Shown: positions 1 to 25,951 of the stretch, piece by piece
How the letters are laid out: the number at the start of each line of letters is the position of its first letter
Numbering within the stretch: position 1 is the stretch's first letter
Assembly (NCBI GenBank): GCA_965204375.1
Contig: OZ241986.1
Location: forward strand, 3,936,001-4,000,000
Source: Candidatus Latescibacterota bacterium
GTDB lineage: Bacteria > Latescibacterota > UBA2968
DNA length: 64,000 nucleotides
Reading direction: 5' to 3'
The notes under the pieces: model-generated
The model's input: the letters and a program-made list of their open reading frames with translations, nothing else
Databases searched by the model: none
What the model was told of the DNA's origin: nothing
Made by a program: the position numbers and the translations under genes

Positions 1-1635
1 CAACCGTTGGACAATCAAGCCCATCAGTGTTGTGCCACCAGTCATGTTGGCTACGATCTCGTCGGCATTTAACAAATGGGTACGAGCCTGTTCTGCTGAC
101 GTCTTAATCTCGGAAAAACCACCGTGTGGATCGGTCAGAATAATCTGATCAATGTCACCGCCAAAGCCCGCATGTTTGGCGGCGTTACAAATACTACTTG
201 ATGATGTGGCTGAGCAAATCACCAGGCAGGTACCAGGCTCAGCGACTTTTAACGCCGAAAACAATACGCCGGGTCTTGTTCCTTGCGGTGAAAGCAACAA
301 CCGACCGCCGCCACCACCCAATTGCGGCAGAGCAATATGTTCCGCTTTCAGTTGATCCCAAAACATCTGAACCGATTCAAGATATCCTGGTGGCTGTTCA
401 AGAGGATCGTAGCGCATGCCATGATGGTGTAGTATATTGCGTAGGTCTGCGAGTTGATTCCAGAAGTCGCCGAACGCCTTCTGCTTACAGGTTCTGATAG
501 CTTTGAACGCCTCATCTCTGGCAAATGCGCCGAGGGCACCGAGGCGGCGTTCATACCGCAAGCGCACATCTCGGTCCAACCACTTTTCGACCTCTTCGGG
601 ATTTCCGGATTTCAATATGGCCCAGGAAACCACCCACTCACGCATTAGACCAATAGCCAACGGAAATTGACCGCGCTCCAGGTACAAATCAATCATGCCA
701 GCTTGACGAGCCAGTTCATCTTTATCTATAGTAACTGTCTTTTTCCATTGATCCTTTGGGGGTGACTTTACAAAGGCCGTTTTGTCAGCAACGCTGACGA
801 TAGCGTCCGTTAGTTCTTTAGCGAGCGGCGGAAGATTGGGAGAATCTATGTCAGGAAGGGTGCAAATCGCATCAACGAGCACCCGACTGGCCTTTCGCAA
901 TTCCAGCGGCAAAGCGGACTCATAGGCAAAGGCGTGCTTCCCCAGTGACTCAACTGAATTATTGACTTGATTGAATTGAGCGTTCCATTTTTTCCCCTCA
1001 CTCATATTACCAGCTTTGAACAGTGCGACTTTTTTTTCGTTTAACATATCTGCCAACGGCTTAAGAAGTTGCGCTACAGGCTCAGTCGTCCCCTGGTCTC
1101 GGAACATCCGCACCGCGTGAAACCACTCTGGCAATTCGAGTAATGGCCGCAAGTCAATGATGGGTTTGGGATCGGCAGTCTCGACCATGCCATAGTAGGC
1201 ACCGCGAATTTTCACGCCGCGGAGCGATGTGAGATAGAGTACCAGAGCGTAAAAGATGAACGGAAAGTGCCGGAACCCCTGTGTAACATCAAGCGTGAGT
1301 TCCGCGCCTTCTGGAATTTTTTGGGCTACCTTTTCGAGAATCTCACGGATCTCGTCGGGACTTTTTCCGTCGGGAATATCAATTGCTTCGGGTTTAATTT
1401 CAAGGATGGTGCTAATTTCCGTCTTAAAAACCGGCCATGTTTTATCCCTGGCTCCATCTGTGACCATCGCGACAACGCGATTGGGTTGTTGCAATGAGTC
1501 GAAAAATTGCACCAAAGCCAGTGGGGTGAGCGGTGCGGTAGCTGTTTTACCATTCCACTGGTATTCTGTTGGGATGGCATTCATTCCCAGACTGGTCAGT
1601 AGAATATGCTTATTTTCGTGTGTTTCTTCTTCCAA
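1..1635 (-). CDS. csx1: Csx1/TM1812-like CARF-HEPN ribonuclease with an additional C-terminal CARF domain (3' end beyond window)
   Basis: Not in the ORF track; translated by hand. TTG at 1635 follows AAGGAG and the frame stays open to base 1. N-terminal 'ILLTSLG...LDVTQGFRHFP...AYYG...IIDL' is a DxTHG-type CARF; HEPN motif 'RNILHH' at ~421-441; poly-Gly linker, then 'LLLSPQGTRPGVLFSAL...ANMTGGTTLM' (second CARF). Confidence 0.85.
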   Translation of the reverse strand, partial: MEEETHENKHILLTSLGMNAIPTEYQWNGKTATAPLTPLALVQFFDSLQQPNRVVAMVTDGARDKTWPVFKTEISTILEIKPEAIDIPDGKSPDEIREILEKVAQKIPEGAELTLDVTQGFRHFPFIFYALVLYLTSLRGVKIRGAYYGMVETADPKPIIDLRPLLELPEWFHAVRMFRDQGTTEPVAQLLKPLADMLNEKKVALFKAGNMSEGKKWNAQFNQVNNSVESLGKHAFAYESALPLELRKASRVLVDAICTLPDIDSPNLPPLAKELTDAIVSVADKTAFVKSPPKDQWKKTVTIDKDELARQAGMIDLYLERGQFPLAIGLMREWVVSWAILKSGNPEEVEKWLDRDVRLRYERRLGALGAFARDEAFKAIRTCKQKAFGDFWNQLADLRNILHHHGMRYDPLEQPPGYLESVQMFWDQLKAEHIALPQLGGGGGRLLLSPQGTRPGVLFSALKVAEPGTCLVICSATSSSSICNAAKHAGFGGDIDQIILTDPHGGFSEIKTSAEQARTHLLNADEIVANMTGGTTLMGLIVQRL

Positions 1636-1656
1636 GAGTAACTCCTTTCCTGAGAT

Positions 1657-3342
1657 TTACAAACTCCCGTTTTTCTTCTCCGAATGAATCCCGCGATGGC
1701 AAGTTTTGCAGACAATGAGGGTCTTTCGCTTTCGCGCGATCATTTCTCGCATCCATTTGTTCTCTGGTACTCGCCCCTGTCTATGGACGAGTTTTCGGAT
1801 ATGATGCACTTCCACATGGCCTGCTACGCCGCAGCATTCGCACTGGTTTGACAGCAGGCGTTGGATGAGTTCTACCCCCTTGCACCACATCGCCCTGTTC
1901 TGGTCATGAACCGCAAGAAATATCCCTTCTCTCGGCCTCAACGGAAAGCCGCCAAAGCGCGCCATCCGAGGTTGTCCATCTTCACACAACACCGGCACCT
2001 CCACACACGTTTGAGGACCATAAGGCGTTTGTATGGTCGCCTTATACTGCTTCACAAGTTGATTCACATGTGTCTTGTGTTTTTTCGCAAGCGTCTTGAG
2101 CAACGACGAACTCATCACCCAGCGCAATACATTTAAGATATGGACATTGTGTGCCAAAAGGTAGTATTGCACATATCCGACATATCGACTCTGAAAAAGA
2201 CTGATGATTTCCCAATCGCTGTCATGGAGCAGTTCAGCGCGGTATGTGATGCGCCCGCGTTTTTGATACAGGCTACACTTCTCTTTTACAGCTTTTTTAG
2301 GCACACTGAGACTCAAGGTATTTTGAGTTGCGCCATTCAGATTTTTAATTTCGTATCCGAGAAAAAAAGCACTCTCTGTCCGACAGTGGGTAATTGCAGT
2401 CTTGTCCTCTGAAAGCTCCAATCTCAGCGTCTCTCGCAAAAATGCTTTGAGACATTCTTTGATCTCTTTTGCCTCTGCCTTTCGCCCGGTAAAACCGATC
2501 AAAAAATCGTCGGCATATCGGATATAGCGAATACGTCTGAAACTGGGACCCTGAGCATCCAATATGGTCAGGATTCTTTGCAACTCCTCTGGGGTTTTCC
2601 AACTCGCCTCTATGCGTTTCTCGCCCGTTGTGTACAGGGGCACAAGCGTATTTTCGACAAACTGATCCAACCTGCCGAGATAGATATTTGCGAGAAGTGG
2701 ACTGATGGGACCGCCTTGTGGCGTACCCCTCAGCGTAGGTTCGTAACGCCCATGCGCGATGCATCCGGCCTTGAGCAACTCTCCGATTAAGTCGATAAAC
2801 CGATCATCGTGAATTTTCTCTTTCAAAATAGACAGCAGGCACTCGTGATCTATGCTGTCAAAGCACGCTTTGATATCGCCCTCAATAAAATAGTCTATGT
2901 CTTTCCATCTCGAAATTTCCGCGAGTGCAGAATGGCAACCTCGCTGAGGCCGAAATCCGTGGGACAGGTCACTAAACTGGGGATCATAATAAGCATCCAG
3001 CAGAGATCGCATAACCTCTTGCACCAGTTTATCCGACCAAACAGGTATGCCGAGCGGACGCCGCCCGCCATTTTTCTTCGGAATATAGATGCGCTTGACA
3101 GGCGTCCATTGATATCGCTCGCAGCGGAATGCCTCAATGAGGGCATTGATTTTCGCCATAGACATGCCATCTGTGGTTTCTCGTGTGATGCCTTGCGTGG
3201 TCGCGCCAGCTTTTCGATACAGCCGTCCATAAGCGCGTAAAAAGAGGTCCGGGTTGTAGAGGTGTCGATAAATGTTCTCAAGGGGCAAATTTTGTCTGCC
3301 TCTTTTCTGTATGGCTTTTAATACGGGTTCCGCGATCTTCAC
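1657..3342 (-). CDS. Group II intron-type reverse transcriptase/maturase with C-terminal HNH-like endonuclease domain
   Basis: RT motifs 'RPLGIP..DKLVQ', 'SHGFRP.RGCH', 'EGDIK.CFD', 'GTPQGG.ISPLLANIYL', 'YADD'; domain X region; C-terminal 'CECCG..VEVHH..CKTCH..IH'. Confidence 0.92.
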   Translation of the reverse strand: MKIAEPVLKAIQKRGRQNLPLENIYRHLYNPDLFLRAYGRLYRKAGATTQGITRETTDGMSMAKINALIEAFRCERYQWTPVKRIYIPKKNGGRRPLGIPVWSDKLVQEVMRSLLDAYYDPQFSDLSHGFRPQRGCHSALAEISRWKDIDYFIEGDIKACFDSIDHECLLSILKEKIHDDRFIDLIGELLKAGCIAHGRYEPTLRGTPQGGPISPLLANIYLGRLDQFVENTLVPLYTTGEKRIEASWKTPEELQRILTILDAQGPSFRRIRYIRYADDFLIGFTGRKAEAKEIKECLKAFLRETLRLELSEDKTAITHCRTESAFFLGYEIKNLNGATQNTLSLSVPKKAVKEKCSLYQKRGRITYRAELLHDSDWEIISLFQSRYVGYVQYYLLAHNVHILNVLRWVMSSSLLKTLAKKHKTHVNQLVKQYKATIQTPYGPQTCVEVPVLCEDGQPRMARFGGFPLRPREGIFLAVHDQNRAMWCKGVELIQRLLSNQCECCGVAGHVEVHHIRKLVHRQGRVPENKWMREMIARKRKTLIVCKTCHRGIHSEKKNGSL

Positions 3343-3411
3343 GACGCATCTCTTGATTGTTTTTAAGTATTGAAAGGTCTGTATTAGAGACCTAAAAACC
3401 CTGACCGACTG

Positions 3412-4736
3412 GTTTCAATCCCCTAAAAATCGGGTCAAGTGTTCTGCTGAGTTTTCTCACTCAATTCAAACGTTTGACCATCCCCGTGTTTCAATCCCCT
3501 AAAAATCGGGTCAAGTGTTCTGCTTGACAGCTCCTCAGCCCGCGTAAATCAGTAGGTAGTAGTGTTTCAATCCCCTAAAAATCGGGTCAAGTGTTCTGCT
3601 CCCCTTTATATATCAGACATACGAGATCTGATTTCTTTGTTTCAATCCCCTAAAAATCGGGTCAAGTGTTCTGCTGTGTTTTAGATAATTTTTTAGATGC
3701 TGATTGATAATTACGTTTCAATCCCCTAAAAATCGGGTCAAGTGTTCTGCTATGCTCGCTGTCTATTACACCTCGAAAGGAAGACATCAAGTTTCAATCC
3801 CCTAAAAATCGGGTCAAGTGTTCTGCTGATTCTGACACACCACCGGGACGATGTTGTTGTATGCTGTTTCAATCCCCTAAAAATCGGGTCAAGTGTTCTG
3901 CTCGGAAGCCATCACTCTTCTCATATTTTTTGCGTACTATCGTTTCAATCCCCTAAAAATCGGGTCAAGTGTTCTGCTTCCCCATATGACATCACATTCA
4001 CACGCGGAGGAATCGTCCGTTTCAATCCCCTAAAAATCGGGTCAAGTGTTCTGCTTTGTTGTGTTGGAAATGGGCTTTGCTCTCTCAGCAACGTTTCAAT
4101 CCCCTAAAAATCGGGTCAAGTGTTCTGCTTCCTCGTACGAGAGCACAATTCATAAGCTCGTCAACAAGTTTCAATCCCCTAAAAATCGGGTCAAGTGTTC
4201 TGCTATGAACAAATTATTCGCAATTGCAACAGCTGTCGTTATGTTTCAATCCCCTAAAAATCGGGTCAAGTGTTCTGCTGCACCCGAACCTTCCAAACAG
4301 CGGGGTTGCTGAGAGAGGTTTCAATCCCCTAAAAATCGGGTCAAGTGTTCTGCTTTGCGCGTGTGCATATCAAATCAAACCCGATGACTCCAAATGGTTT
4401 CAATCCCCTAAAAATCGGGTCAAGTGTTCTGCTATCGATGGCGAATTGAGCGATAACGAAATGTACGTGCTCGTTTCAATCCCCTAAAAATCGGGTCAAG
4501 TGTTCTGCTCTGAAGCACTGGATATCCAGGTAGTGCAGCGAGAGATGTGTTTCAATCCCCTAAAAATCGGGTCAAGTGTTCTGCTGAAATCCGAATAAAC
4601 CGCAAACAGGAGCTGGTGATATGGGTTTCAATCCCCTAAAAATCGGGTCAAGTGTTCTGCGTGCAGAGGACCAGGCTAATTATGATCGTCGTTGGCCAAG
4701 TTTCAATCCCCTAAAAATCGGGTCAAGTGTTCTGCT
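3412..4736 (-). CRISPR. CRISPR array, 18 repeats and 17 spacers (37-42 bp)
   Basis: 37-bp repeat GTTTCAATCCCCTAAAAATCGGGTCAAGTGTTCTGCT on +, i.e. AGCAGAACACTTGACCCGATTTTTAGGGGATTGAAAC on -, ending in the canonical ATTGAAAC handle. All copies are identical except one terminal base at 4661. Confidence 0.99.
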
Positions 4737-4997
4737 CGCTCCTTTCTAACTCGCTGAGTCACAATTTGTTTGAGAGCCTGTTGCGACTCAGGCCATATTG
4801 ACAGGCGTACGCCCATCCATTTTGATTCAACCATTGCAATCCCATTCTGATAATCCCTTGTAGGACAAGAAATTACAAATTCGCGACCCAGAATAGGATG
4901 AAATGATTTACCTAATTTCCACTGCTTAAAAGCAGTATCAATCCAATGCGCCATATTGACAACCTCTTTTTAATCAGAGTCGCGAAGCTCCGGATAT
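4737..4997 (-). promoter_or_regulatory. CRISPR leader
   Basis: Relatively AT-rich 261 bp between the cas2 stop and the first repeat; contains the palindrome ACTGCTT-AA-AAGCAGT (4921-4936). Confidence 0.75.
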
Positions 4998-5276
4998 TCA
5001 AACAATAATATGATCTTTTTCATCCTGCGGAGGTGAACCACCTGTAAACTCGATTTTGCTCTCGCATGCGCGGCACAGCGTATAATAGCGCACCAGATCA
5101 CCCTCTGCAAGACCAATTTCACTCATGCGCTGCCGCAACTCGACAAATTGCCGTTCGCCAATGCGACACTCGAACACACTCTTTTGCACCCGCGTTCCAA
5201 AAGCCTCCAGCACCCGCGTCGCCTGCCTGCGCGTGCGGTCAGAACTAATATCAAAGCAAATGGTCACAAACATCAA
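4998..5276 (-). CDS. cas2: CRISPR-associated endonuclease Cas2
   Basis: 92 aa, 'FDIS.DR.R...L..FG.RVQKSVFEC'; overlaps the cas1 stop. Confidence 0.97.
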   Translation of the reverse strand: MMFVTICFDISSDRTRRQATRVLEAFGTRVQKSVFECRIGERQFVELRQRMSEIGLAEGDLVRYYTLCRACESKIEFTGGSPPQDEKDHIIV

Positions 5277-6271
5277 CGCACCAGAAAAGCCCTGTATTGG
5301 GCCTCCTCACCCAGAATCACCCGGGCCAATCGGCGCACCTGATATTCAAGGCAACGCCGGTAAGAAATCCGCTCCACCCGCTCGCCCCCCACGGGATAGG
5401 TCACACGGTCTTCAAGACGTCTCTGGTACCCCTCAATCAACCGCTTGCGGCCCTCTCCCTGCAAAAATACACCCCCATCTCGCGCTTCAAAATCCTCGCT
5501 CTGCACCCGGTTGTGGTTGATCAAATCCAGCACCAGCGCATCCACCAGCACGGGCCGAAACTCCTCCATCAAATCCAGTGCCAGAGAAGGACGCCCATAG
5601 TCAACCACATGCAGAAAACCCAGATACGGGTCGAGACCAACAAGATAAATCGCGCCTTCCACACTATTGCCCAGCAACGCATACCCAAAGCTGAGCAACG
5701 CATTAACCGGGTCTCTGGGCGGACGTCTGTTGCGTCCCTTAAACGCGAATCCTTCGGGAAAAAAAGTCCCAAGCACGCCAAAATAAGCCGCGGTGCCCGC
5801 CCCCTCAATGCCGCGCAAAGTTTCGGCATTGGTAGCCTGTCCCACCTGCTGAATTGACCGACGCAATCTATGGGCCACTGTCCCCACATCCACCTTGCGC
5901 CGCCGCGCCAGACGCATAAGCAGGGTTCGCATATTGCGGAGTTTTCCCTCTACCACAGCCCGCGCCACACGCAGACGAAACGGCTCATCTTCATAGCACT
6001 TGAACTGCTTTTGTCGCAACACCACATTGCGCCGCGCAGGCCCCACCAGCCGTCCCCGATACCGCCCATTGATACTTAAAAAAACCGTATCCACCCCTTG
6101 TTCGAGCAACGTACTCATCGCCGGAGCCGAAAGCGCGATTTGCCCCATAAGCACCACCTGCTCCAGATCGTGCAAATGCACCTCAACCAGAACTTGCTTG
6201 CGTCGCCGCACTTGCAAACGCTCCCCCCGGCGATAAACCCCCGCACCCTGATCTGTCACATAGAGAATCAC
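5273..6271 (-). CDS. cas1: CRISPR-associated endonuclease Cas1
   Basis: 'LRGIEG...YF', 'R.RRPP.DPVNALLSFGY', 'GFLH', 'SLALDLMEEFR'. Confidence 0.98.
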   Translation of the reverse strand: MILYVTDQGAGVYRRGERLQVRRRKQVLVEVHLHDLEQVVLMGQIALSAPAMSTLLEQGVDTVFLSINGRYRGRLVGPARRNVVLRQKQFKCYEDEPFRLRVARAVVEGKLRNMRTLLMRLARRRKVDVGTVAHRLRRSIQQVGQATNAETLRGIEGAGTAAYFGVLGTFFPEGFAFKGRNRRPPRDPVNALLSFGYALLGNSVEGAIYLVGLDPYLGFLHVVDYGRPSLALDLMEEFRPVLVDALVLDLINHNRVQSEDFEARDGGVFLQGEGRKRLIEGYQRRLEDRVTYPVGGERVERISYRRCLEYQVRRLARVILGEEAQYRAFLVR

Positions 6272-8199
6272 CCCAGGTCAACCTCCACCTGGAAACGCCC
6301 CTCTCCATCGCGGCGCAAAATCCACCCACCAGCCCGCAGTTCATCCCGATCTGCCGAAGTAATGGCATAGTGCAGATCGTCTTCGAGTTGCGCCAACTCG
6401 CGTTTCAGTCGTTGGTAATCCCGCTGCAAATTCACGTATTTATCCACCAGAGGCCCGTGGCGGTCTGCACTCTGTGACCGGCCTCTGGTAAACGTTGAAT
6501 CGAGATGCAACAGCGGAGAAGGATACCCTCCTTCGGGCAAATCGAACACACACGCGCAATTAACCGTCGAAGTGACCTCGGGAAGACGCTGGCGGATCCT
6601 GGGACAACTGATGGGAGAGGGCGGCGTGCGATCAATCTGCTGCTGAGTGATGGTCTCGGAGTAATCGAGACAATGCCCTATGATACTGTGGATCAACCGT
6701 CCCCCACCGTCGTCCAAATGCCCCAAAATGCACTTGAGCACCAACCGCTCGTCGTGTGTGAGATGATGCGTAACCACGGCTTTTTCCATTAGCGCGACCA
6801 GCACCGGACACCCCTTGAAAAGAGCCTCGTATTCGGGAAAATCTGCTTGCAGAGTTTGCACTGACCCGGCCGTACCACCTTGTGCGGGCGGAGCCACCAG
6901 ACGGGACACGGCCTGCTCAAAAGCCCCTCGCTCAACCTGTTGGATGCGCTGGAGAAAACCTTCCTGATCGCTATACTCCTGTCCGTCCAGATCGGTAAAC
7001 AAACACCTGCGTCCGGTTTTCAGATGAATCCCCAGCGGCAACTTGATCAAATTGCCCAGTTGATCTTCGGCGACTTGCTCTTGCTTGGGAAAAACTTCCC
7101 ACTGGAGTTCTGGCCCCGGCGGACCGACCCGCTGGACAACCGCCTCTAAAAAACGCTTCACCACTGCTGCGGGCACTGGCTCAGCAAAAAAAAGCCACAG
7201 ATGCACCCCCTTATATCCACTATCTTCCACATAAACCGGCAGGTGTAAGTCTTCGAACTGCCGCGCCAGCCGCCGGGCGTCTGCCAGCACCAACTCTTGA
7301 AGTCGAGCAGAAATGGGCTGACCCGCCTCGCCCGCTTTCAGGGCACTTTTGCGGATATCGATATCAATAGCCCCGAAAAGCACGGTCTGGTCTGCCCGCA
7401 CCGGGTACACGCCCAGAGTCGCCGTACCTTGCAGATGCAGAGCCAACAGATGATCGGCGAGAGGCTCCTGTAGCGGACTGTACCCAACCCGACCATTCTC
7501 ATCTATCCACTGCCGCGCATGCACCCCTTCCCGCCCGGCAAACAAGACCCGCATCCGCCGCGCGGCATCCTCTCCAGAAGGCACCTCGCTACTCGGCAAT
7601 TGTGCCAATTCTCGCATCCGCGCCATCACCACCTGAAGCGCGGTCTGCGCCTCCTCATTATTCGGATCGCACGCCAGACCCCGCTCATAAGCATCTGCGG
7701 CCAGCCCCCACAACTCGTCTTCGACATAGCACTGCGCCAGTTCAAAAGCAACCGCAGCGTGATCTGGACTCACCCGCAGGGCGCGCTGCAACAAACCCAC
7801 GGCCCGGTCCCGCTCGCCACGTTCCAAGCAGATCAGACCCAGCCTGTAGAGTACCACACCATTTTCAGGCGCCCGTTTTAGCAGATCTTCATAGATCTGC
7901 ACCGCCGTTTCCAATTCTTCTACTTCCTCGGCGATCAGACCCCACTCGACATAGTGTTCATCGCAGGGCAACTGGCCGCGGTACGCGATGCGGTCGCGCA
8001 CCTTGTCGGGTTCGTTCCGCCCCAGCCACACCCGCGCCATCAACTGATGCGCTGGCACACTAACCGGATCGGTCACCAGTACATCGGCACACAAACTCTC
8101 GGCGCGATCAAATTCCCCATCCTCAATATGCTGCCGCGCCTGATCCAACATATCCTGTATATCCGCCAAACGTATATCCCTCACAAAATCTCGTAGCAC
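6268..8199 (-). CDS. CRISPR-associated primase-polymerase (CAPP; TPR + AEP + Cys-rich PriL-like C-terminus)
   Basis: N-terminal TPR repeats; AEP motifs 'DID', 'SGYKGVH', 'GNLIKLP'; C-terminal Cys at GCP, HCLDY, ISC, CAC; overlaps both cas6 and cas1. Confidence 0.9.
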   Translation of the reverse strand: MLRDFVRDIRLADIQDMLDQARQHIEDGEFDRAESLCADVLVTDPVSVPAHQLMARVWLGRNEPDKVRDRIAYRGQLPCDEHYVEWGLIAEEVEELETAVQIYEDLLKRAPENGVVLYRLGLICLERGERDRAVGLLQRALRVSPDHAAVAFELAQCYVEDELWGLAADAYERGLACDPNNEEAQTALQVVMARMRELAQLPSSEVPSGEDAARRMRVLFAGREGVHARQWIDENGRVGYSPLQEPLADHLLALHLQGTATLGVYPVRADQTVLFGAIDIDIRKSALKAGEAGQPISARLQELVLADARRLARQFEDLHLPVYVEDSGYKGVHLWLFFAEPVPAAVVKRFLEAVVQRVGPPGPELQWEVFPKQEQVAEDQLGNLIKLPLGIHLKTGRRCLFTDLDGQEYSDQEGFLQRIQQVERGAFEQAVSRLVAPPAQGGTAGSVQTLQADFPEYEALFKGCPVLVALMEKAVVTHHLTHDERLVLKCILGHLDDGGGRLIHSIIGHCLDYSETITQQQIDRTPPSPISCPRIRQRLPEVTSTVNCACVFDLPEGGYPSPLLHLDSTFTRGRSQSADRHGPLVDKYVNLQRDYQRLKRELAQLEDDLHYAITSADRDELRAGGWILRRDGEGRFQVEVDLG

Positions 8200-9122
8200 C
8201 CCAGGCCAAAGCCCGTACCCTTACCCACATGCAAATCTGCGCCCAGTCGCAAAAGCGGCATAAACGGTTCTATGTCCCCAGTAAAAACCACATCGCCCAC
8301 CACACCGCCCAATTTCATCCTCTGATCCTGACGCAACGAATACCGCTCCCAATCGTACCAGCGCGTATTCACCGTTGCGGTCTGCACTTTTTCTGCCCGC
8401 GCAATCCACTGCCCGTAATCCAGTTCCAGTTCCGCGCCACAGTGAAAGCGCATCAGATCTGATACGCGCCGCAACAACGCGCGCACCAGCAGGGAAAAAT
8501 CGAGACGAGAAGCATAGCGTCCTCCCGCTTTGAGACGGATCGGCGTCTGCAACCGCAGATGCACCAACGAGCCAACATCTTCTCCCCTGGACGACCCAAC
8601 ACAAAGCGGATAATCCAGATCCAGCATGCCCGTATCCGCCTCATAAATGCACTGTTCGCCCGCCGCACTCAGCGCAACAACCCGCTTCAGCGCAACTTTC
8701 CCGCGCCCCGTCCCCAGGCCCTGACGCCCCATCTCTTCAAAGGCATAAATAAAATAGGGCAGAGAATCCAGTGCCCGCCCCACCAGCACCAGCCCGACAG
8801 ACAGTGCGTCGCCTACCTCGTAAATCTGGTGCGTCTCTCCAGGCGGTTCAATCACAAACGGATGTGGCGCGAAAGCGTATCCCCGGCTGTCTTCCTCATC
8901 GCTGAACGGCGGCGTCTCAAAAACATAATAATACACGCACTGGGCGCAGATCAGACACGTCGAACAGTCCATATCTCGCTTAACGCACACCAGCTTTTTG
9001 AACGCATGCCCAAAAGCCCCCCGAAGGGTCGATCCCTTGTAGGGCGGCAATTTCAAGCGATCAACCGCCACCATCTCCATGCGAAAACGCGCATAGTGAA
9101 TTTTACGCAGTTCATCTATCAT
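8181..9122 (-). CDS. cas6: crRNA processing endoribonuclease Cas6
   Basis: 'GSTLRGAFG', Cys-rich insert, C-terminal Gly loop 'GKGTGFGLG'; ATG at 9122 follows GAGGTG. Confidence 0.95.
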   Translation of the reverse strand: MIDELRKIHYARFRMEMVAVDRLKLPPYKGSTLRGAFGHAFKKLVCVKRDMDCSTCLICAQCVYYYVFETPPFSDEEDSRGYAFAPHPFVIEPPGETHQIYEVGDALSVGLVLVGRALDSLPYFIYAFEEMGRQGLGTGRGKVALKRVVALSAAGEQCIYEADTGMLDLDYPLCVGSSRGEDVGSLVHLRLQTPIRLKAGGRYASRLDFSLLVRALLRRVSDLMRFHCGAELELDYGQWIARAEKVQTATVNTRWYDWERYSLRQDQRMKLGGVVGDVVFTGDIEPFMPLLRLGADLHVGKGTGFGLGCYEIL

Positions 9123-9227
9123 AGGCTCACCTCTTTTGAATAGGGAAGCCATATATACGCGAATTGCGCGTTAAAAGCAAACACAGCATAACAGGTAGCA
9201 ACACACTGGCGCAGTCATACCACTCTT

Positions 9228-9536: not shown

Positions 9537-12274
9537 TCGTTAATGATGTAGATAATGCGCCCATTCTCATCCGACACGTAGATCGGTCCTTTCAGGATAC
9601 AGTCCCCCCACTTGCTACTCTGGCCGCCAACGAGCTTCCCGCTCGGAGGGGCGGGCAAGCTATACGCATCGGCCCGACTAACATTGACGCGGTAGCCGAG
9701 ATCAGATAGGGACTGGATCGTGATCGCGCTCAGGGGATTGGCATCGTAACTGTGAGTCGGCGTCATAAGTTCGTTGCCGAACACGGACGCCCTCCAATGA
9801 CCGCCATCACTCTCTGTTGGTACCTTTGCCCCGTTGTAATTCCTACCACCTGCATTGTTGAACGCTTGAATCGATAGCGCGCCGGTGAAGTACCTGTCAC
9901 TACGCCCACGGAGCAAATCCAGGTAATCCCAAAGCGTCCCAATCCCCAGAACGTGCCCCATCTCATGTAAGACCACCGTCCAGAGAGATCCTTCCTCCTC
10001 TATCCTCTGAAGGTCGGCCGTATCTAACAATATCTTTCCAAGAATCGGCAATTTGGTGTCCCCTCGTATCCAAAAATATCCCGCTCGCCCAAGGGTATCG
10101 CCGGAGCCGTCGATACTGGTAGCCCCCACGAATATCCGCAGGTCATCCACGGTGTCATTAACGCGAATTCTTGCGCCCAAATCCGCGTCCCATTCATTAT
10201 ACGGATTGGTCGAAAAGTCGATATCACTGAGGTCTTCTGTAATGATCGACATCCAGTGCCTTGCCGCCTGTCGGAATACTGCCTTCTGAGAAATGGTAAA
10301 GTCGTTGTCGTTGACAAAGACGAGTTCGATATTGAAGTCCCCGCTCGTGCCCGACGTCGATTCCTGATTCGCCTCTATTTTCAGGGTATAGCTCCCAGCA
10401 GTAGAAGAATCATAACCTCGTATCCGGATATAGTAGGTGCCCGAACGAACCGAAGCAGAAGTATAGAAGTTGCTACCCACACCCGCATCGTCATCCTCAG
10501 TAAGAACCCGACCTGAACTATTCAGGATAGCACCGTAGGTATCCGTGCTACCCGTCGTATAAGCAACCAAAGTACCAGAACCACTCACACTAACGCGGAA
10601 GTAATCCGTATCCCCCGCTGATAACCTGCCAGAAGTCGTACTGCCCAACGAGACTCGCGTTGCCTCTGAGCGCGTGTTTCCATGGTCATCTACGATGGTG
10701 ACCGTGATGCGTATGGCAGTAGAGCAATTGTTTCCGGTATCGCTCTCGCCGCTGACATCATCCACGCAGGCACCGTAAAAATAGGTCCCTGCGCTCGATG
10801 GTACATTCAAACGGATTGACTCAGCACTCGTATTAGAAGCCGGAAGACCGCTCACCGCGTCCGTGCCAACTTCCCTATCACCCGTTGTAATCGTCGCGTT
10901 TGACGAGCGGTAATAGCGCAGTGTCGTAGTGGCAGACCGACCAGTACCCTGATTGCGGACGGTAGCTCTCAGCGTGAAGGATTGCCCTGACGTCAGGGTA
11001 TTATCGCTGACCGAAGGCGATTCAACAATCAGGTCCGGCGCACCACCGCCACCACCGCCACCACCGCCACTCGCAGGAGATACCGGTTTGCCAAAATCAT
11101 TGGTGAAGATCACAAAATCTGAAAAACCAATCGCACCATCGCTATCCAAATCGTATTTCGCTTGATATGTCCCATCGCCTCGGCTTGACCCAAACACGCC
11201 TGCAAACTGCACAAAGTCGGCAAAGCCAACCATACCATCCCCGTCAAAGTCGGGCGTCAGAACCGCAGAATCTGATTGCAACCCAACGCTAATACTCAGC
11301 GTCACGCGCTCAAATTGTCCACTCCGACCAAGTTCACCGCGCACCAGCCGAATACGCGTACCCGAAAACGCCGCCATCGTGCGAAAGCGAATCGTGCCTA
11401 CCAGACCCGTATTGGACGTGGCTTGACCACCCAAAGACCCAATACTGATCTGGACAAAAGTCGGATTTGTGCCGTGTTCTGCTGGAAGCACGACAACATT
11501 TGGCAGCACATCACCCGCATCAAAACCGTCATAACCAACCTGACCCGCATCGTATTCAAAGCGCGTAGAAATACCATTCGCATTTTGAATATCCCTGCCA
11601 AAAATCTGAATGGCAACAACCTGACCGGGCGATACATTCACAGATGTAGCCGCTTGATCACCTGCTGAGCCATTTACATCCAGGGACAGAGAAAAACTAT
11701 TCTGTGAGGATACAGACTGCTGTCTCGCTTTCGCAAAAGTAATTACGATCCTGATTGGATCATCTGGCGGTACGTGCTGAGACAGTGCGTTCATTGCCAG
11801 AGGTCTTACAGATTCGGGTAATGAGGCCAATAATTCTTCTAAAAGAAGCGGGCGTATGATATGCAGCGAATCCGCCGTCGCTGTGTACGTATAATTGGTC
11901 TTCATTTTCGCGGTTATGGTGAGTGCATGGGTATCGGACGCGACTGTATAATTCCCCTCATATCGGCTCGTATCGTGTACAGCGACAGTAAGCGGAACCA
12001 ATAATACCATAGAGAAATTGGTTACTGTTGTGTAGTCAGATTGAACCTTGCCATCTGAACCAAAAGTTATTGTGCCGTTGATCTCGCCTTCGACTGTAAG
12101 AGGCGATACAACCTGCACGAGCCCGGCCGGGACATAAGCGTTCAGCCCGATCTTCTCAGCTACCCATGAACCCACGATATCGCCACCTTGAGGCTTAGGG
12201 GTTTCTGGCAGCAGTCCCGCATCTGCCTGTCCAAATGCTATGAACACCGTAATAAGTAGAACGTAGTCTCTCAA
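9533..12274 (-). CDS. Secreted multidomain zinc metallopeptidase (cohesin-like, EF-hand/dockerin-like, CARDB, PPC, leishmanolysin/M8-like)
   Basis: Signal peptide; 'PDFDGDGMVGFADF' pair; poly-Gly linker; 'HEMGHVLGIG...GHW...ELMT'. Confidence 0.85.
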   Translation of the reverse strand: MRDYVLLITVFIAFGQADAGLLPETPKPQGGDIVGSWVAEKIGLNAYVPAGLVQVVSPLTVEGEINGTITFGSDGKVQSDYTTVTNFSMVLLVPLTVAVHDTSRYEGNYTVASDTHALTITAKMKTNYTYTATADSLHIIRPLLLEELLASLPESVRPLAMNALSQHVPPDDPIRIVITFAKARQQSVSSQNSFSLSLDVNGSAGDQAATSVNVSPGQVVAIQIFGRDIQNANGISTRFEYDAGQVGYDGFDAGDVLPNVVVLPAEHGTNPTFVQISIGSLGGQATSNTGLVGTIRFRTMAAFSGTRIRLVRGELGRSGQFERVTLSISVGLQSDSAVLTPDFDGDGMVGFADFVQFAGVFGSSRGDGTYQAKYDLDSDGAIGFSDFVIFTNDFGKPVSPASGGGGGGGGGAPDLIVESPSVSDNTLTSGQSFTLRATVRNQGTGRSATTTLRYYRSSNATITTGDREVGTDAVSGLPASNTSAESIRLNVPSSAGTYFYGACVDDVSGESDTGNNCSTAIRITVTIVDDHGNTRSEATRVSLGSTTSGRLSAGDTDYFRVSVSGSGTLVAYTTGSTDTYGAILNSSGRVLTEDDDAGVGSNFYTSASVRSGTYYIRIRGYDSSTAGSYTLKIEANQESTSGTSGDFNIELVFVNDNDFTISQKAVFRQAARHWMSIITEDLSDIDFSTNPYNEWDADLGARIRVNDTVDDLRIFVGATSIDGSGDTLGRAGYFWIRGDTKLPILGKILLDTADLQRIEEEGSLWTVVLHEMGHVLGIGTLWDYLDLLRGRSDRYFTGALSIQAFNNAGGRNYNGAKVPTESDGGHWRASVFGNELMTPTHSYDANPLSAITIQSLSDLGYRVNVSRADAYSLPAPPSGKLVGGQSSKWGDCILKGPIYVSDENGRIIYIINE

Positions 12275-12414
12275 TACTTTAAACCGCCATTCACTTAATT
12301 TTGTTGCTTTTGGGATTTTACATTGTGGAATCGAGAGGTCCCCTACTCAGCGCAAGTGATACACTTTCCCTTACTCGTGTACACATGGAGTTGCCCCGCT
12401 TCAGTGGAGAGTTT

Positions 12415-12785
12415 AGGCCAAAGCCAGAGGTGTCACCTTGTTGGCTCCGGCGATGCCCCCAAGGGGAAAGGTCAGGGTAAATTGGCATTGGAGGACTTTG
12501 AAGTAGATGCATCCAGACACATCCAGCAATGTCCAGCGGGCCACATGCCCTTCGAGATGTCTGTGAGCAAGAAACGCCTCCAGGTTCGATTTGCTATAGA
12601 TGTGTGTGGGCAATGCCCTTTGCAGGACCGCTACCCGATCAAGGGAAAAGATCGTCTCCAATACACCCACGAACGCATAAAGCAGCGTGCCCGGTGTCTA
12701 TCTCAACAGTCTCCCGCCTTTCGTGACCGATACCGTTGGCGAGCAGGCATCGAAGGGACCGTATCGCGTCTAAAGCATCAAGCAT
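12415..12785 (+). pseudogene. Fragment of IS1182-like transposase
   Basis: Diverged inverted copy of ~14795-15165 ('PKGKGQGKL.LEDFEVDAS', 'YRWRAGIE.T.SRLK'); N-terminus missing. Confidence 0.85.
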
Positions 12786-12837
12786 GATAGCTTCTGATGG
12801 GAGCCTCTTAAATACACCATAGCATATTTTTCTTCTT

Positions 12838-13647
12838 TTAAAAGGTTTTCCTGGCTCGTAGGTCTTGGGCTTGTTTGGCGATTATATCTACTTCTCGCGG
12901 GTCAAGGTATCCGTATGTTCGGTTCAGAATTTCTTTATACATTGCCTCAAGTTGCATCCCTAGTGCTGAATAGACAGCGTTATCTACTTCTAAGAACCTC
13001 TTAAACGACACATTTGGAGAATTCCACTTGGATATACCAATAGGGAGGGCGATAGGCGTAATATTTACGCTTTTGGTCCACATTTTTTCATTTGTGAGAC
13101 TTTCGTGAATAAGCAAAGTAACACGCGGATTCATGTAGATCGACCCTGTGTATTCCCAATACTTACTATAGCTAATGACTCGGATATTGGAAGTATCAAA
13201 ATTGAAATTGATTTGAGCGGTAAGAATTAAATTGCTATTGCTTTTATCCACAAATGTCATATCGTCAAATGTCGGGAATGGCCCTCGCAGTGTGTATCCG
13301 CGTGCAGTAATTATCTCACCAAAATCCGCTGCCATATTACTCGAAAATCTGTTAAACATTGGAATTGAAGGAAGCCCTACCATCATTATAGGCGAACCGC
13401 CTCCCGAGGGGTCCATATATGGATAAGGACTACTTGGATAACCCGGATTTTGGCCAAATTGACTTCCTATCACAGCAAATGTAATACCTGTTTTACCTGC
13501 AATATCTTCTTCAGGCATGTAGTCAAATGTAGGACGCCGTCTTAAGACAATCTCCTCACGCGTAGCTACACAACCGCCAAATATAGTGATACATAGCGCA
13601 GCCAATGTGAACAAACCACATAAATTTTTCCATCGTATAAAATACAT
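12838..13647 (-). CDS. Putative lipoprotein
   Basis: ATG at 13647 after AAGGAGAGG; signal peptide ending 'IFGGC'. Confidence 0.75.
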   Translation of the reverse strand: MYFIRWKNLCGLFTLAALCITIFGGCVATREEIVLRRRPTFDYMPEEDIAGKTGITFAVIGSQFGQNPGYPSSPYPYMDPSGGGSPIMMVGLPSIPMFNRFSSNMAADFGEIITARGYTLRGPFPTFDDMTFVDKSNSNLILTAQINFNFDTSNIRVISYSKYWEYTGSIYMNPRVTLLIHESLTNEKMWTKSVNITPIALPIGISKWNSPNVSFKRFLEVDNAVYSALGMQLEAMYKEILNRTYGYLDPREVDIIAKQAQDLRARKTF

Positions 13648-13676
13648 AATCCTCTCCTTTTTCTCCTTTTTTGCAT

Positions 13677-14456: not shown

Positions 14457-16295
14457 TCAAATCGCGGCAGGGATGCCGCTCCTACAGCAGATTGATGAGA
14501 TATTGTCAAATGTTGACGGGTCGGCAAAAAGTCTTAAAATCAAGGGAGAAAGCCCCCTGTAACCCCTTGTCGTGGGTACTTCAAATCGTCTGTTCATACG
14601 CCCTGATATAGGTTTGTAAGGCCCAATAACCCGCTGATGACCTTGCAAGGCACTCAAAAGCCTACCAAAAAGCTTTTGAGGGTAAAAGGACCCCCTATAG
14701 ACAGCGACACGATGGATATTGAGACCCAATGCGCTGAGCAAGACCCGATATTTTACCGCACCTTGCCCACGCACCCGCAGGTGAGCCAGTCCCATTTGAT
14801 GCTTTAGACGCGATATGGTCGCTTCGATGCCAGCACGCCAGCGGTATTGGTCACGGAAGACATCAGACTGTTCAAACAGACGCCGGGCACGTTGCTTGAC
14901 ACGCTCGTGGGTATATTGGAGACGCGCTTTCCCTGGGATTGGACAGTGCTCTTGCAAGGGGCATTGGTCACATAAATCTGGGGCAAATCGAACCTGAAGG
15001 CGTTTCTTGCTCACAGACATCTCAAGGGGTGCATGGCCGGCTGGACATCGCTGGATGTGCCCAGATGCATCTACTTCAAAGTCCTCCAACGTCAATTTAC
15101 CCTGACCTTTGCCCTTGGGGGGCATCGACGGAGCCAACAACGTGACACCTCTATCTTTGGCCTGCGCGATACATTTTGTCGAACCGTAGTGCGTATCGGC
15201 CAGCAGATGCTTGGGCATCACGCCACGGGCTTGTGTATCCTGTATGGCAGGTAAGAGGGCTTTACTGTCATGGACTGTCATCTTGCCAACGGCGATATGC
15301 GTGATCAGGTCTGGCAGGGCAACTTTAGACACGCCTGATGTGGCGTCCTGTGCCTCATCGTCTTTGTCGGTATCATCACAGAAGGTCTCCATGACCTGTA
15401 TGAGGTAGCCCACCCCACGATGCTTATTATAGCTGGCGTCAGGATCGGCCGGATTAAGCGTATTATCACACGGTATCGCATGGGGATCCCGCATCTGGAT
15501 GCTGCTTTGACCAGATGCGCCTTGTATGCGTTGGCACTGTTCTTCAAAAACACCTGCCAACAGATGGTAGCTGTCCAACTGCGCCGCTTCGGTTGGACAA
15601 AACAGCTTTAGCAATGCATCTATATCGGCGGCGGCTTCTAACAATCGACACTTTGACTGGCTCGGTGTGGTTAAAGCGAAACACCCATCGCCTGTGCGGG
15701 CAACATACTTGCGCCACAAGTCACAGTCCAGTTCCTGATACAACTCTGGGCAGGTTCGACGCAACTGGCGCAAGAATTTACTCATGGACTCGACCAGAAT
15801 GCCCAAGCGTGTCAGGTTGCGCATAAAGCTTTGGACACCCGTCGAGTCAATCCGCTGCTTGCGGGTATGAACCCCTACCGAATGAATGAGCTTGTCGGTC
15901 AGACTTTGGAAGAGCACCTCATCCAGGTGATGCTGAATCACCAAACGACGATAGGTGCGAAGCGTTCGCTCGCAAAAATAACAGTCGGCTTCACTGCGCA
16001 CATCAAGGGCATACTGCCAAGCGATGTTGAATGCAATGGCCTCCACTGTCTGTGCATCGGTCAAATCATGCAGTTGTTGCAGCACCAGTGCGCCGAGCAC
16101 AACGTGGAGGTCTTTGCTGGGACGCCCAAAATTTTTGCTAAAATGGGGGGCCAGTGCCTCAACGGGCAGTTCCAAAAGCAGATACTCTCGGAAAACACCA
16201 GCCCAGGAACGATCAAGAAGTTGCTTGCGTTTAGCCCCAAGCTGTATCCAGAAATCCGGTGGGGCTGCCCTATCGTGGTCTCGTAAAGTAAGCAT
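14457..16295 (-). CDS. IS1182-like DDE transposase
   Basis: 'GRPSK', 'RIDST', 'DPDASY', 'LADTHYG', 'YRWRAGIEATIS.LK'; the ORF reads through its own TIR. Confidence 0.85.
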   Translation of the reverse strand: MLTLRDHDRAAPPDFWIQLGAKRKQLLDRSWAGVFREYLLLELPVEALAPHFSKNFGRPSKDLHVVLGALVLQQLHDLTDAQTVEAIAFNIAWQYALDVRSEADCYFCERTLRTYRRLVIQHHLDEVLFQSLTDKLIHSVGVHTRKQRIDSTGVQSFMRNLTRLGILVESMSKFLRQLRRTCPELYQELDCDLWRKYVARTGDGCFALTTPSQSKCRLLEAAADIDALLKLFCPTEAAQLDSYHLLAGVFEEQCQRIQGASGQSSIQMRDPHAIPCDNTLNPADPDASYNKHRGVGYLIQVMETFCDDTDKDDEAQDATSGVSKVALPDLITHIAVGKMTVHDSKALLPAIQDTQARGVMPKHLLADTHYGSTKCIAQAKDRGVTLLAPSMPPKGKGQGKLTLEDFEVDASGHIQRCPAGHAPLEMSVSKKRLQVRFAPDLCDQCPLQEHCPIPGKARLQYTHERVKQRARRLFEQSDVFRDQYRWRAGIEATISRLKHQMGLAHLRVRGQGAVKYRVLLSALGLNIHRVAVYRGSFYPQKLFGRLLSALQGHQRVIGPYKPISGRMNRRFEVPTTRGYRGLSPLILRLFADPSTFDNISSICCRSGIPAAI

Positions 16296-16354
16296 AAACG
16301 AAATATAGCTTACCAAAACTATCGGGGCAATCTCTGACTTTTTGCCGACCCGTC
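14515..16354 (-). mobile_element. IS1182/IS5-like insertion sequence
   Basis: Perfect 19-bp TIR GACGGGTCGGCAAAAAGTC (14515-14533, 16336-16354) flanked by direct repeat AAATGTT; the exact TIR/TSD boundary is ambiguous by 1-2 bp. Confidence 0.9.
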
Positions 16355-16391
16355 AAATGTTGTGGATGGGTTTAGAACGCATCCTTTATGA

Positions 16392-17630: not shown

Positions 17631-17751
17631 GAGCGTGTCCTTTCTCCCTCCTGGAGGGATTTTAGGTTTTTGTGATACTATAGGATACGCTCTTTTCTTT
17701 TACTCATCCACAACTTTTGAATATACCTCCAGATTGATTATTGCGTTATAA

Positions 17752-17947
17752 AGAAAAAAACCAGGTGTCATCACCTATGACACCCGGTTAATATTATGCC
17801 GGTCAAATGCCACAGGCTGTGTGACTCACTCTATAGCCCAGATTGAGCTCGGCCCTTTCGGAGACCGAAACCATAGCATTTAACCGGCTGGAGATTGCAC
17901 ATATTGTACCCGGCTCCCTCCAGCCGGCACTATAGAATGATTCACAC
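17752..17947 (-). ncRNA. Candidate structured non-coding RNA or attenuator (~195 nt), family unknown
   Basis: Bounded by a sigma70-like promoter and an intrinsic terminator; four complementary helices, including a GAAA-tetraloop hairpin. Confidence 0.55.
17754..17789 (-). terminator. Rho-independent terminator
   Basis: Minus strand ACCGGGTGTCAT-AGGTG-ATGACACCTGGT followed by a T-run. Confidence 0.8.
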
Positions 17948-17953
17948 GCCCTT

Positions 17954-17982
17954 ATAGTACAACATCAAAAATTCCTTCGCAA
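17954..17982 (-). promoter_or_regulatory. sigma70-like promoter
   Basis: TTGCGA-17 bp-TACTAT on the minus strand. Confidence 0.6.
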
Positions 17983-18151
17983 CAAAAAAATCGCTCATAA
18001 GACGACCTGCAGGTGCTGTCTGGTATAGCGCGTGTCGGCCAGGGGAGCATGTCGCTCGCCTGATTGCACCGCCAAATAGGACACATTCACAAGCATCTGG
18101 TTTCAAAAAAAAGTAACTATTCAGGACATTGTTGGAAACCCGTGTTGCTAA

Positions 18152-25917: not shown

Positions 25918-25951
25918 CTTAAATCTCCTCCCTTTTGGGGAAGGTCGTGTT

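Follow-up and report, generated by a model that had tools for sequence, protein, structure and literature searches.

Background

How does a gene for a whole group II intron protein come to stand directly past a CRISPR array with no intron RNA around it, and what does it do there? The prevailing view of CRISPR-associated reverse transcriptases (RTs) traces them to group II introns which inserted at CRISPR loci and then lost their RNA; the described clades are old and mostly fused to Cas1. CRISPR RTs of group II intron origin are reported to enable spacer uptake from RNA, and fusions of RT and AEP are reported to exist (PMC8632793). The known CRISPR-RT papers, supplements aside, yielded no earlier description of a CRISPR reverse transcriptase from the Latescibacterota.

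In this study we analyze such a gene in a 64,000-nucleotide stretch of a Latescibacterota genome (the window) and follow its locus through the phylum. Our best explanation, to which we give a probability of roughly 60%, is that the RT is a separately domesticated intron protein of the ML lineage and serves a type III adaptation cassette as a stand-alone CRISPR-associated RT.

The reverse transcriptase gene and its protein

The RT gene occupies positions 3342..1657 of the minus strand, stop codon included, and starts with GTG. Its intact frame of 561 aa, read by the first-pass annotation as carrying RT, X and HNH-like domains, has three Pfam domains that bear this reading out (RVT_1, Intron_maturas2 and AI2M-like HNH). 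Residues 1–335 (2338..3342, minus strand here and below) form an N-terminal extension and the RT fingers and palm with a YADD motif (RVT_1 at residues 87–332, E 3.9e-32). They are followed by the X, or maturase/thumb, domain at residues 336–440 (2023..2337; Intron_maturas2 at 357–432, E 4.2e-10; dN/dS 0.07–0.24), by the DNA-binding D region at residues 441–495 (1858..2022; delimited approximately by alignment with intron proteins; dN/dS 0.10–0.45), and by the En domain, an HNH with two Cys pairs, at residues 496–561 plus the stop codon (1657..1857; AI2M-like_HNH at 501–549, E 1.5e-12; dN/dS 0.07–0.28). Every mark of a group II intron-encoded protein is therefore in place: a YADD RT, an X domain, and a D/En region with HNH and Cys pairs. 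In the clade to which the protein belongs, Y276 A277 D278 D279 (the YADD) and F152–K158 are invariant in all 25 members, as are the En residues C501, C504, H513, H514, C545, C548, H549 and H553, and compared with intron proteins the clade has a specific deletion of ~20–45 aa between the LVPxYT block and YADD. The TIGR04416 model aligns with residues 34–422 at 278 bits, below its cut-off of 300; CRISPR-linked RT proteins score 270–285 bits, against 277–290 for intron proteins of the same lineage, which likewise fall below the cut-off.

The protein is most like LtrA (E 1.3e-98), compared with E 4.1e-12 for Cas6-RT-Cas1 and 1.9e-10 for the CART-CAPP RT (8bgj), a comparison in which the 15 described CRISPR-RT clades are represented by two PDB entries, both remote. 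The recruitment of this RT thus appears, at the level of sequence similarity, to be separate from that of the CRISPR RTs with solved structures, in agreement with the possibility of an independent domestication raised in the first-pass annotation. Structure prediction from the 25-sequence alignment reached a mean pLDDT of 48.6, too low for fold comparison, and the predicted complex of RT and Cas1 scored 0.00, which is no answer for or against.

The CRISPR cassette and its flanks

The cassette lies on the minus strand and opens with cas6 (8181..9152; Pfam CRISPR_Cas6 E 9.3e-19), whose counterparts at the same place are 94% identical in genome G076 and 88% in G072. The next gene encodes a CRISPR-associated primase-polymerase (CAPP; 6268..8199; NCBIfam NF040561 at 360 bits, cut-off 200; Pfam AEP-TOTE and TPR). 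It combines TPR, AEP and a C-terminal domain in an operon with cas1-cas2, an architecture matching the CAPP_A 'CAPP-TPR' of Zabrady 2021 (PMC8211822); CAPP is reported in the same source to bind Cas1 and Cas2. Then follow cas1 (5273..6271; Pfam Cas_Cas1 E 3e-101) and cas2 (4998..5276; TIGR01573 E 8.6e-16); Cas4 is absent from the cassette as read.

Between cas2 and the array lies a stretch of 261 nt (4737..4997) that is the probable leader, as judged from the minus-strand repeat ends (...GGGGATTGAAAC), from the degenerate repeats of relatives, which lie at the RT-proximal end of the array, and from a promoter-like site, matched by consensus only, at minus-strand positions 4962-4934. The array itself (3412..4736, minus strand) consists of 18 repeats of 37 nt with 17 spacers of 37–42 nt between them. 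No full-length match to any of the 17 spacers occurs elsewhere in the source genome; for two of them there are partial matches, of 16 and 19 nt, a size expected by chance.

Two short gaps bound the RT gene, and both distances in the first-pass annotation are exact: 69 bp to the last repeat, which ends at 3412, and 21 bp to the next start codon, a TTG at 1635. The 69-nt gap (3343..3411, minus strand) resembles the equivalent piece of related introns only in the ribosome-binding site and its spacer; it contains no strong promoter or terminator match, and its fold z-score of -1.34 is not notable. The 21-nt gap (1636..1656, minus strand), identical in length in G076, holds a GGAAAGGAG ribosome-binding site and is too short for domains V–VI. 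Beyond it a csx gene of the CARF family TM1812/TIGR02221 (DxTHG) runs off the window (1..1635, minus strand; TIGR02221 at 81 bits, cut-off 76.25), and past this gene, outside the window, lies a type III-D-like effector module. In L066 the downstream genes encode a Cas10-like protein, Csx10-like and Csx7-like RAMPs, Csx19, a TIGR03986 RAMP/cold-shock fusion and a CARF-adenosine deaminase. Among the sequencing runs searched for the locus, no RNA run containing it was found; three runs, all from one study, contain at least half of the sampled words (share 0.66–0.67).

Conservation and synteny in the Latescibacterota

Orthologs of the RT, 60–94% identical, occur in five other Latescibacterota genomes (G076, G072, G140, G122, G133), in all of which the gene stands directly past the array on the same strand; the six genomes represent two families. 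Across the six loci the last repeat lies 22–771 nt upstream of the RT gene, and the order CAPP, cas1, cas2, array, RT is kept in all five genomes that have the upstream side on the same contig. The cassette of G122 is split across two contig ends, each running into array. The 'recent' domestication proposed in the first-pass annotation is not supported, given the shared layout in two families, identities down to 60%, and dS of at least 1 between deep RT pairs.

CAPP, cas1 and cas2 are 81–95% identical among the RT-bearing loci, whereas the effector genes past the RT vary: for the Cas10-like protein the identity is 28% in G072 and in G133, and none was found in G140. With conserved adaptation genes on one side and variable effectors on the other, the RT therefore moves together with the adaptation genes. 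The two features by which a CART is recognized, an RT gene without intron RNA in a CRISPR-Cas locus with cas1-cas2, and an association kept across genomes together with co-inheritance with the adaptation genes (6/6 loci), are both seen. Adaptation does not need the RT, since four of the ten orthologous CAPP cassettes (CAPP identity at least 78%) are without it (G087, G082, G091, G135); the RT is an optional add-on to the CAPP-cas1 cassette. The CAPP gene of G072 at one point seemed broken by an in-frame TAG, but this codon lies upstream of the start codon and the gene is intact.

The position of the gene counts against a role in adaptation. The RT is not next to cas1, from which cas2, the leader and the whole array separate it, and it adjoins the CARF/effector side, standing in all six genomes between the array and a CARF-family gene, with 14–105 nt to the next gene and no promoter-like site between array and RT. 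The RT may thus be a selected part of the CRISPR locus that works outside adaptation, as a nuclease/RT effector or an RNA-handling factor on the CARF/type III-D side or in relation to pre-crRNA, and the invariant HNH residues and a Cas10-like protein of only 544 aa would fit such a role. We nevertheless regard it as unlikely, since the effector modules are not conserved in the RT-bearing loci, in contrast to CAPP, cas1 and cas2, and the polymerase motif is conserved as much as the nuclease.

Alternatively, the RT could serve a general host function that has no tie to CRISPR, such as the DNA repair proposed for free-standing intron-like RTs, and be hitch-hiking beside the array. Such RTs without intron RNA exist, for example G2L4 (PMC6013744), and the gaps in the distribution of the gene among CAPP cassettes are in line with this idea. 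It is made improbable by the fact that all six full-length clade members of known context lie directly past an array, while 168 genomes of the phylum yielded no member at any other place; the only other trace is a 68-aa RT remnant ~660 nt from a solitary repeat in G073, an eroded locus.

Phylogeny and selection

The six CRISPR-linked RTs group with 19 metagenome proteins in a single clade (SH-aLRT 97), and none of 21 proteins that do have a domain V falls inside it. The dN/dS estimate proposed in the first-pass annotation gave 0.12–0.19 for the RT, compared with 0.10–0.12 for CAPP and 0.08–0.10 for cas1. Every domain of the RT is under purifying selection, and the catalytic residues of both the polymerase and the HNH are invariant, so the view of the gene as a domesticated intron-encoded protein that still carries maturase and nuclease is upheld for RT, X, D and En alike.

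In close pairs the RT co-diverges with cas1 and CAPP: between the source genome and G076, dS is 0.22, 0.23 and 0.23 for RT, CAPP and cas1. Divergence of the RT at the level of dN is about double that of its neighbors (0.20 between the source genome and G140, against 0.10 for CAPP and 0.065 for cas1), and for G140 and G133 its dS of 1.56 is likewise about twice that of CAPP (0.61) and cas1 (0.74). For deep pairs the trees are mildly incongruent. In the RT tree the G133 group branches outside all others (support 92), whereas the tree of CAPP and Cas1 joins G133 to G122 (89/86), and some exchange between cassettes is therefore possible.

Group II introns do land in type III loci, as illustrated by the ML-class intron of Herpetosiphon aurantiacus beside RAMP genes (PMC5541045), so that the gene might be a decaying intron remnant, its frame open by chance or its RNA lost recently. 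This is contradicted by the low dN/dS over dS values reaching at least 1 in six genomes, and the true decaying intron copies of the phylum (G146 and G080) show the opposite state, with the ORF broken and a domain V still scoring 68 bits; a recent transfer of a single sequence to six loci is excluded by the identities of 60–94%. We consider decay very improbable.

Search for intron RNA

A mobile group II intron would have domains I–III (~500–600 nt) upstream of the ORF and domains V–VI some 20–40 nt past its stop, and would be expected in multiple or near-identical copies. Here 69 nt separate the ORF from a CRISPR repeat on its upstream side, the next gene begins 21 nt past the stop, and the RT is single-copy per genome at a syntenic site. 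Rfam gave no match at gathering score over all 64 kb, and at E<=10 the 20 matches in positions 1-6000 were 18 weak ones to CRISPR-DR10 and two unrelated ones, with no intron family among them. R1, a lineage model of domains V–VI (a covariance model from 21 related introns), was run with filters off and found nothing at or beside the RT ORF, nor did an nhmmer profile of the 5' intron at the RT locus of the source genome. Domain V was matched at none of the six CRISPR-linked RT loci, the window included. The one real intron of the source genome served as positive control and, though absent from the training sets of both home-made models, was detected by Rfam, R1 (44.1 bits, E 7.8e-7) and the 5' profile (E 1.3e-49) alike.

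Among relatives outside the clade, domain V is the rule. RF00029 lies directly past the ORF in all 20 relatives on genome contigs at <=53% identity, domain V stands just 3' of the ORF in 25 of 25 checked RT relatives at <=54% identity, and it accompanies the source genome's own intron as well as all four intron copies of the phylum. The 80 RT-like loci kept from JGI metagenome contigs are all <=59% identical; 61 of them match R1 and are therefore introns rather than clade members. Viral contigs yielded no RT relatives. When the array-csx junction of the RT-less G087 was compared, as a candidate empty site, with the RT flanks, the alignable parts were confined to an old, degenerate repeat and the start of csx.

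The absence of domain V after the stop, noted in the first-pass annotation, is thus upheld by Rfam and by R1, and neither a domain V in or beside the ORF nor a near-identical complete intron elsewhere, which that annotation had named as evidence against its own reading, was found. It is scarcely credible that the RT acts in trans as the maturase of group II introns at other places in the genome, whether ORF-less or not, since, despite its conserved X domain and one or two domain V matches elsewhere in each of the source genome, G072 and G122, three of the five other carriers (G076, G140 and G133; 93–98% complete) have no RF00029 match among the 150 of ~300–350 candidates scored per genome, and the sole intron of the source genome encodes its own 597-aa protein, 37–50% identical by segment to the CRISPR-linked RT.

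A model of recruitment and function

Under our preferred reading, a domesticated ML-lineage protein acting in adaptation, the ribozyme would have been removed on both sides of the RT ORF, to within ~20 nt upstream and 14–105 nt downstream, and the gene would since have been passed on as a fixture of the cassette, in the order cas6, CAPP, cas1, cas2, leader, array and RT. We infer a role for the RT in spacer capture. It may make DNA from RNA protospacers or from RNA ends that Cas1-Cas2 has joined to the array, with CAPP supplying priming or second-strand synthesis, and the type III system would thereby take spacers from transcripts. The HNH domain could nick DNA or trim its ends in a cassette that, as read, has no Cas4.

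A bolder form of this model, which we think quite unlikely, is that target-primed reverse transcription has been re-aimed at CRISPR adaptation without the ribozyme, resulting in a spacer capture that resembles retrohoming. The HNH would then nick array or invader DNA for a primer, or take the place of Cas4 in trimming prespacers; starting from the nicked end, the RT would reverse-transcribe transcript RNA, and CAPP would make the second strand for Cas1-Cas2. If true, the locus would be a living intermediate of the first CRISPR recruitment of intron RTs.

A clade that keeps the whole intron protein under selection, nuclease included, looks like an early stage of intron-to-CRISPR recruitment. 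The RT-less sister cassettes (G087, G082, G091, G135), the eroded G073 locus and the true introns of the same lineage in the phylum provide natural controls, and two questions become testable, what the RT adds to a Cas1-Cas2-CAPP integrase and whether an intron HNH domain can serve in adaptation. Tool builders, too, may take an interest in a stand-alone RT that is compact and carries a nickase.

Comparison with known systems

The CRISPR RTs known to us, RT-Cas1 and Cas6-RT-Cas1 fusions among them, have no En domain, and a role of En here would therefore be without precedent. In protein architecture and sequence family the Latescibacterota RT is like the proteins of mobile ML-class introns such as Ll.LtrB (LtrA) and that of Herpetosiphon aurantiacus, to which it is 49% identical, but it lacks the intron RNA (domains I–VI) of those introns and is single-copy and syntenic. 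It shares with the G2L RTs and with MatK and nMAT the condition of an intron-derived protein outliving its own ribozyme. To our knowledge the G2L RTs have neither an En domain nor a CRISPR context. MatK and nMAT are organellar and nuclear maturases that still serve introns, unlike an RT of which three carrier genomes (G076, G140, G133) have no RF00029 match among the candidates scored.

The stand-alone CARTs are closer. Archaeal clade 1 of Toro et al. is said to consist of stand-alone CRISPR RTs from a class F intron, and like these the Latescibacterota RT is intron-derived, without intron RNA, and a separate gene in a type III locus near cas1-cas2. It differs in its LtrA-like/ML lineage, in its full-length X, D and HNH En regions, and in its place past the array, where theirs is beside cas1. 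A published recruitment model (PMC6013744) has a 'stage 2' to which both would belong. With the RT-Cas1 and Cas6-RT-Cas1 fusions of Marinomonas mediterranea and Thiomicrospira (PDB 7kft) it has in common the type III context and a presumed spacer uptake from RNA, although it is unfused and far closer to LtrA. CART-CAPP, finally, likewise pairs an RT with a primase-polymerase in one adaptation module with Cas1-Cas2. In the Latescibacterota each has a gene of its own, the CAPP is of the TPR-AEP-CTD type and the RT is of a different lineage; the pairing therefore looks convergent, and would be the second of an RT with a CRISPR primase-polymerase.

Locus organization and the RT protein

On the minus strand of the window, one block of genes in a single orientation runs from cas6 through csx. 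It comprises cas6 (9152-8181), a TPR-AEP primase-polymerase of the CRISPR-associated primase-polymerase (CAPP) family (8199-6268; NF040561 scores 360 bits, above its cut-off of 200), cas1 (6271-5273), cas2 (5276-4998), a 261-nt leader, a CRISPR array of 18 identical 37-nt repeats (4736-3412), the reverse transcriptase (RT) ORF (3342-1657) and a csx gene of the TM1812/TIGR02221 family (1635-1, truncated by the window end). A type III-D-like effector set continues past the window end, with a Cas10-like protein, Csx10-like and Csx7-like RAMPs, Csx19, a TIGR03986 RAMP fused to a cold-shock domain and a CARF-adenosine deaminase. Read on the minus strand, the 3' end of the repeats is ...GGGGATTGAAAC, and arrays in relatives carry degenerate repeats on the RT-proximal side; by these signs the trailer end of the array is the one next to the RT.

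The first-pass annotation had described an intact 561-aa ORF with RT, X and HNH domains, 69 nt from the last repeat and 21 nt from the next start, and this holds to the nucleotide: the frame is unbroken from a GTG start, and Pfam finds RVT_1, Intron_maturas2 and an AI2M-like HNH domain. Among solved structures, the nearest relative is LtrA of the Ll.LtrB intron (E 1.3e-98). CRISPR-linked RTs score 270-285 bits with TIGR04416, no lower than true intron proteins of the same lineage (277-290). Across an alignment of the 25-sequence RT clade the YADD motif, the HNH histidines and both Cys pairs do not vary; relative to intron proteins, the clade shows a loss of ~20-45 residues in the RT4-RT5 interval, with a smaller one of a few residues ahead of the X domain.

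Several neighboring genes were noted in passing. In L066, the source-genome stretch holding the effector genes, the TIGR03986 RAMP (11260-13665, minus; G000:C1 ~3927260-3929665; 801 aa, 282 bits) has its cold-shock domain at the C-terminus (CSD, E 9.6e-27), and a related CSD piece lies upstream of CAPP in genome G140. The type III-D-like module is closed by a 603-aa protein (L066 9303-11114, minus) with a CARF-like N-terminus (Cas_NE0113) and an adenosine deaminase domain, which appears Cad1-like. A few kb upstream of cas6, three differing transposase genes of the IS1182-like, IS256 and IS1380 families stand in series (window 14457-19787, minus), and at 22177-25980 (minus) a 1267-aa protein has Sel1/TPR-like repeats together with a serine-peptidase-like region and, at its C-terminus, a caspase-like domain of the EACC1-associated type.

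Absence of intron RNA

That no intron RNA accompanies the ORF was confirmed by three approaches. Rfam gave no match at gathering score over the 64-kb window, and no intron family among matches at E<=10 in window 1-6000. A domain V-VI covariance model, trained on the 21 introns whose proteins are closest to the RT and run filters-off across the six CRISPR-linked loci, had its top match (E 0.11) within a CAPP gene; the source genome's own intron, outside the training set, scored 44.1 bits. A profile built from the first 700 nt of 20 related introns recovered that control intron at E 1.3e-49; its one match in the CRISPR loci was a stretch of ~30 nt at the G140 start codon. In side-by-side comparison, intron likeness upstream of the ORF is limited to the ribosome-binding site and spacer (GAGGTATGCGTA before ATG in introns; GAGGTTTGCGTA and AGAGATGCGTC before GTG in CRISPR-linked RTs), placing the 5' break ~20 nt ahead of the RT ORF.

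The Rfam domain V model, RF00029, matches within a few tens of nt past the ORF in 20 of 20 relatives from genome contigs at <=53% identity (examined as sets of 6 and 14), and also after the ORFs of the source genome's paralog and of four intron copies in the phylum, so that with all controls pooled domain V is present in 25 of 25 relatives checked. Two of those four copies, in G146 and G080, have broken ORFs and still score 68 bits for domain V; real decay in the phylum thus looks like the reverse of the RT locus. The sole complete group II intron of the source genome (G000:C1 1647649-1649485; stretches L003 and L067) encodes a 597-aa protein 37-50% identical to the CRISPR-linked RT, with domain V 37 nt past the ORF match.

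Conservation, origin and selection

Among 168 Latescibacterota genomes searched, five others, spanning two families, hold full-length RT orthologs: G076 (94% identity), G072 (87%), G140 (71% by genome search, 68% by tblastn), G122 (64% and 62%) and G133 (64% and 60%). In all five the array precedes the RT on the same strand, with a gap of 22-771 nt that sometimes holds a degenerate repeat or small ORF, and the next gene starts 14-105 nt past the RT stop; neither Rfam nor the filters-off model found domain V at these loci. In G122 the gap (L058 1120-1891) contains a small ORF and a degenerate repeat; in G133 (L059) it contains an ORF fragment that, read from the sequence, may resemble the start of a PHP-type phosphoesterase. 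CAPP-cas1-cas2 lies upstream in 5 of 5 genomes with that side on one contig (81-95% identity), and in G122 CAPP-cas1 is at the end of a separate contig. Downstream effector genes vary (Cas10-like, 28% identical in G072 and G133). The RT belongs with the adaptation cassette and array and is tied to no particular effector.

In an RT tree of 67 rows from a quick search, the six CRISPR-linked RTs group with 19 metagenome proteins (P0003-P0021, 60-91% identical) in one clade (SH-aLRT 97) that includes 0 of 21 domain-V-bearing proteins and is sister to these rather than nested among them, with the root weakly supported. By dN/dS, selection is purifying: 0.12-0.19 over the whole gene, and below 0.3 by domain in most pairs, the D region reaching 0.45 in one. 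The same genome pairs give 0.10-0.12 for CAPP and 0.08-0.10 for cas1. In the closest pair dS is equal for RT, CAPP and cas1 (0.22, 0.23, 0.23), as co-inheritance would predict.

CAPP cassette orthologs (>=78% identity) occur in ten genomes, four of which (G082, G087, G091, G135) lack the RT; in G087 the csx gene directly follows the array. On the CAPP+Cas1 tree RT presence costs three changes, e.g. one gain and two losses. In G073 all that is left is a single lone repeat and RT codons 1-68. RT protein divergence is ~2x that of CAPP and cas1, RT dS between G140 and G133 is ~2x theirs, and the RT and cassette trees disagree mildly in deep branching order. These results make the RT an optional module, and some exchange between cassettes may have occurred. 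Among cassettes without an RT, that of G135 is followed by an array (L071 6108-19981) with 184 or more repeats, extending past the stretch retrieved, and that of G087 has an array whose trailer end (L069 8131-8304), with degenerate repeat ends, contains a perfect tandem duplication of 87 nt comprising a repeat and a spacer. A second CAPP-cas1 pair in the source genome (G000:C1 5211695-5213566; L072) is 41-42% (CAPP) and 58% (Cas1) identical to the window's, with no RT match nearby.

Interpretation and comparison with known systems

The RT is best read as a CRISPR-associated RT that stands alone and is of LtrA-like, apparently separate origin. The first-pass annotation's picture of a domesticated intron-encoded protein keeping maturase and nuclease domains was right in substance; its dating of the event as recent was wrong, given orthologs down to 60% identity in five other genomes, fixed synteny and selection. 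The protein keeps a conserved HNH endonuclease domain and is paired with the CAPP primase-polymerase. We infer a role in spacer acquisition, and likewise any use of the nuclease. The RT might instead act in interference or RNA processing, a possibility disfavored by the variation of effector modules among RT loci, or serve a host function unrelated to CRISPR, also possible but disfavored by its occurrence exclusively beside arrays. A maturase acting in trans is unlikely, since scoring 150 of the ~300-350 candidates per genome gave no RF00029 match in G076, G140 or G133. A fresh intron remnant is ruled out by selection and synteny.

Type III systems are well known to contain RTs of group II intron descent that lack intron RNA and are fused or adjacent to Cas1; of the 15 clades described, the majority are nearer class C introns, one archaeal clade derives from a class F intron, and clade 12 has an AEP primase fused or adjacent (PMC6013744; PMC8632793). 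Three such systems have been shown to take up RNA spacers in an RT-dependent manner (PMC8632793), TPR-type CAPPs complex with Cas1 and Cas2 (PMC8211822), and CART-CAPP fusions prime DNA synthesis (PMC10415136). Our literature search found no description of the present clade; a possibly relevant 2019 RNA Biology survey, together with the supplements of all papers, lay outside that search. In Herpetosiphon aurantiacus, an RT beside a CRISPR-Cas locus is a true ML-class intron, recently inserted (PMC5541045), and is probably our stretch L012 from that strain, which has domain V, directly follows type III RAMP genes and encodes a protein 49% identical to the RT. The RT clade has no intron RNA, keeps the whole protein and is fixed in position; it is the next step for the H. 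aurantiacus intron's lineage.
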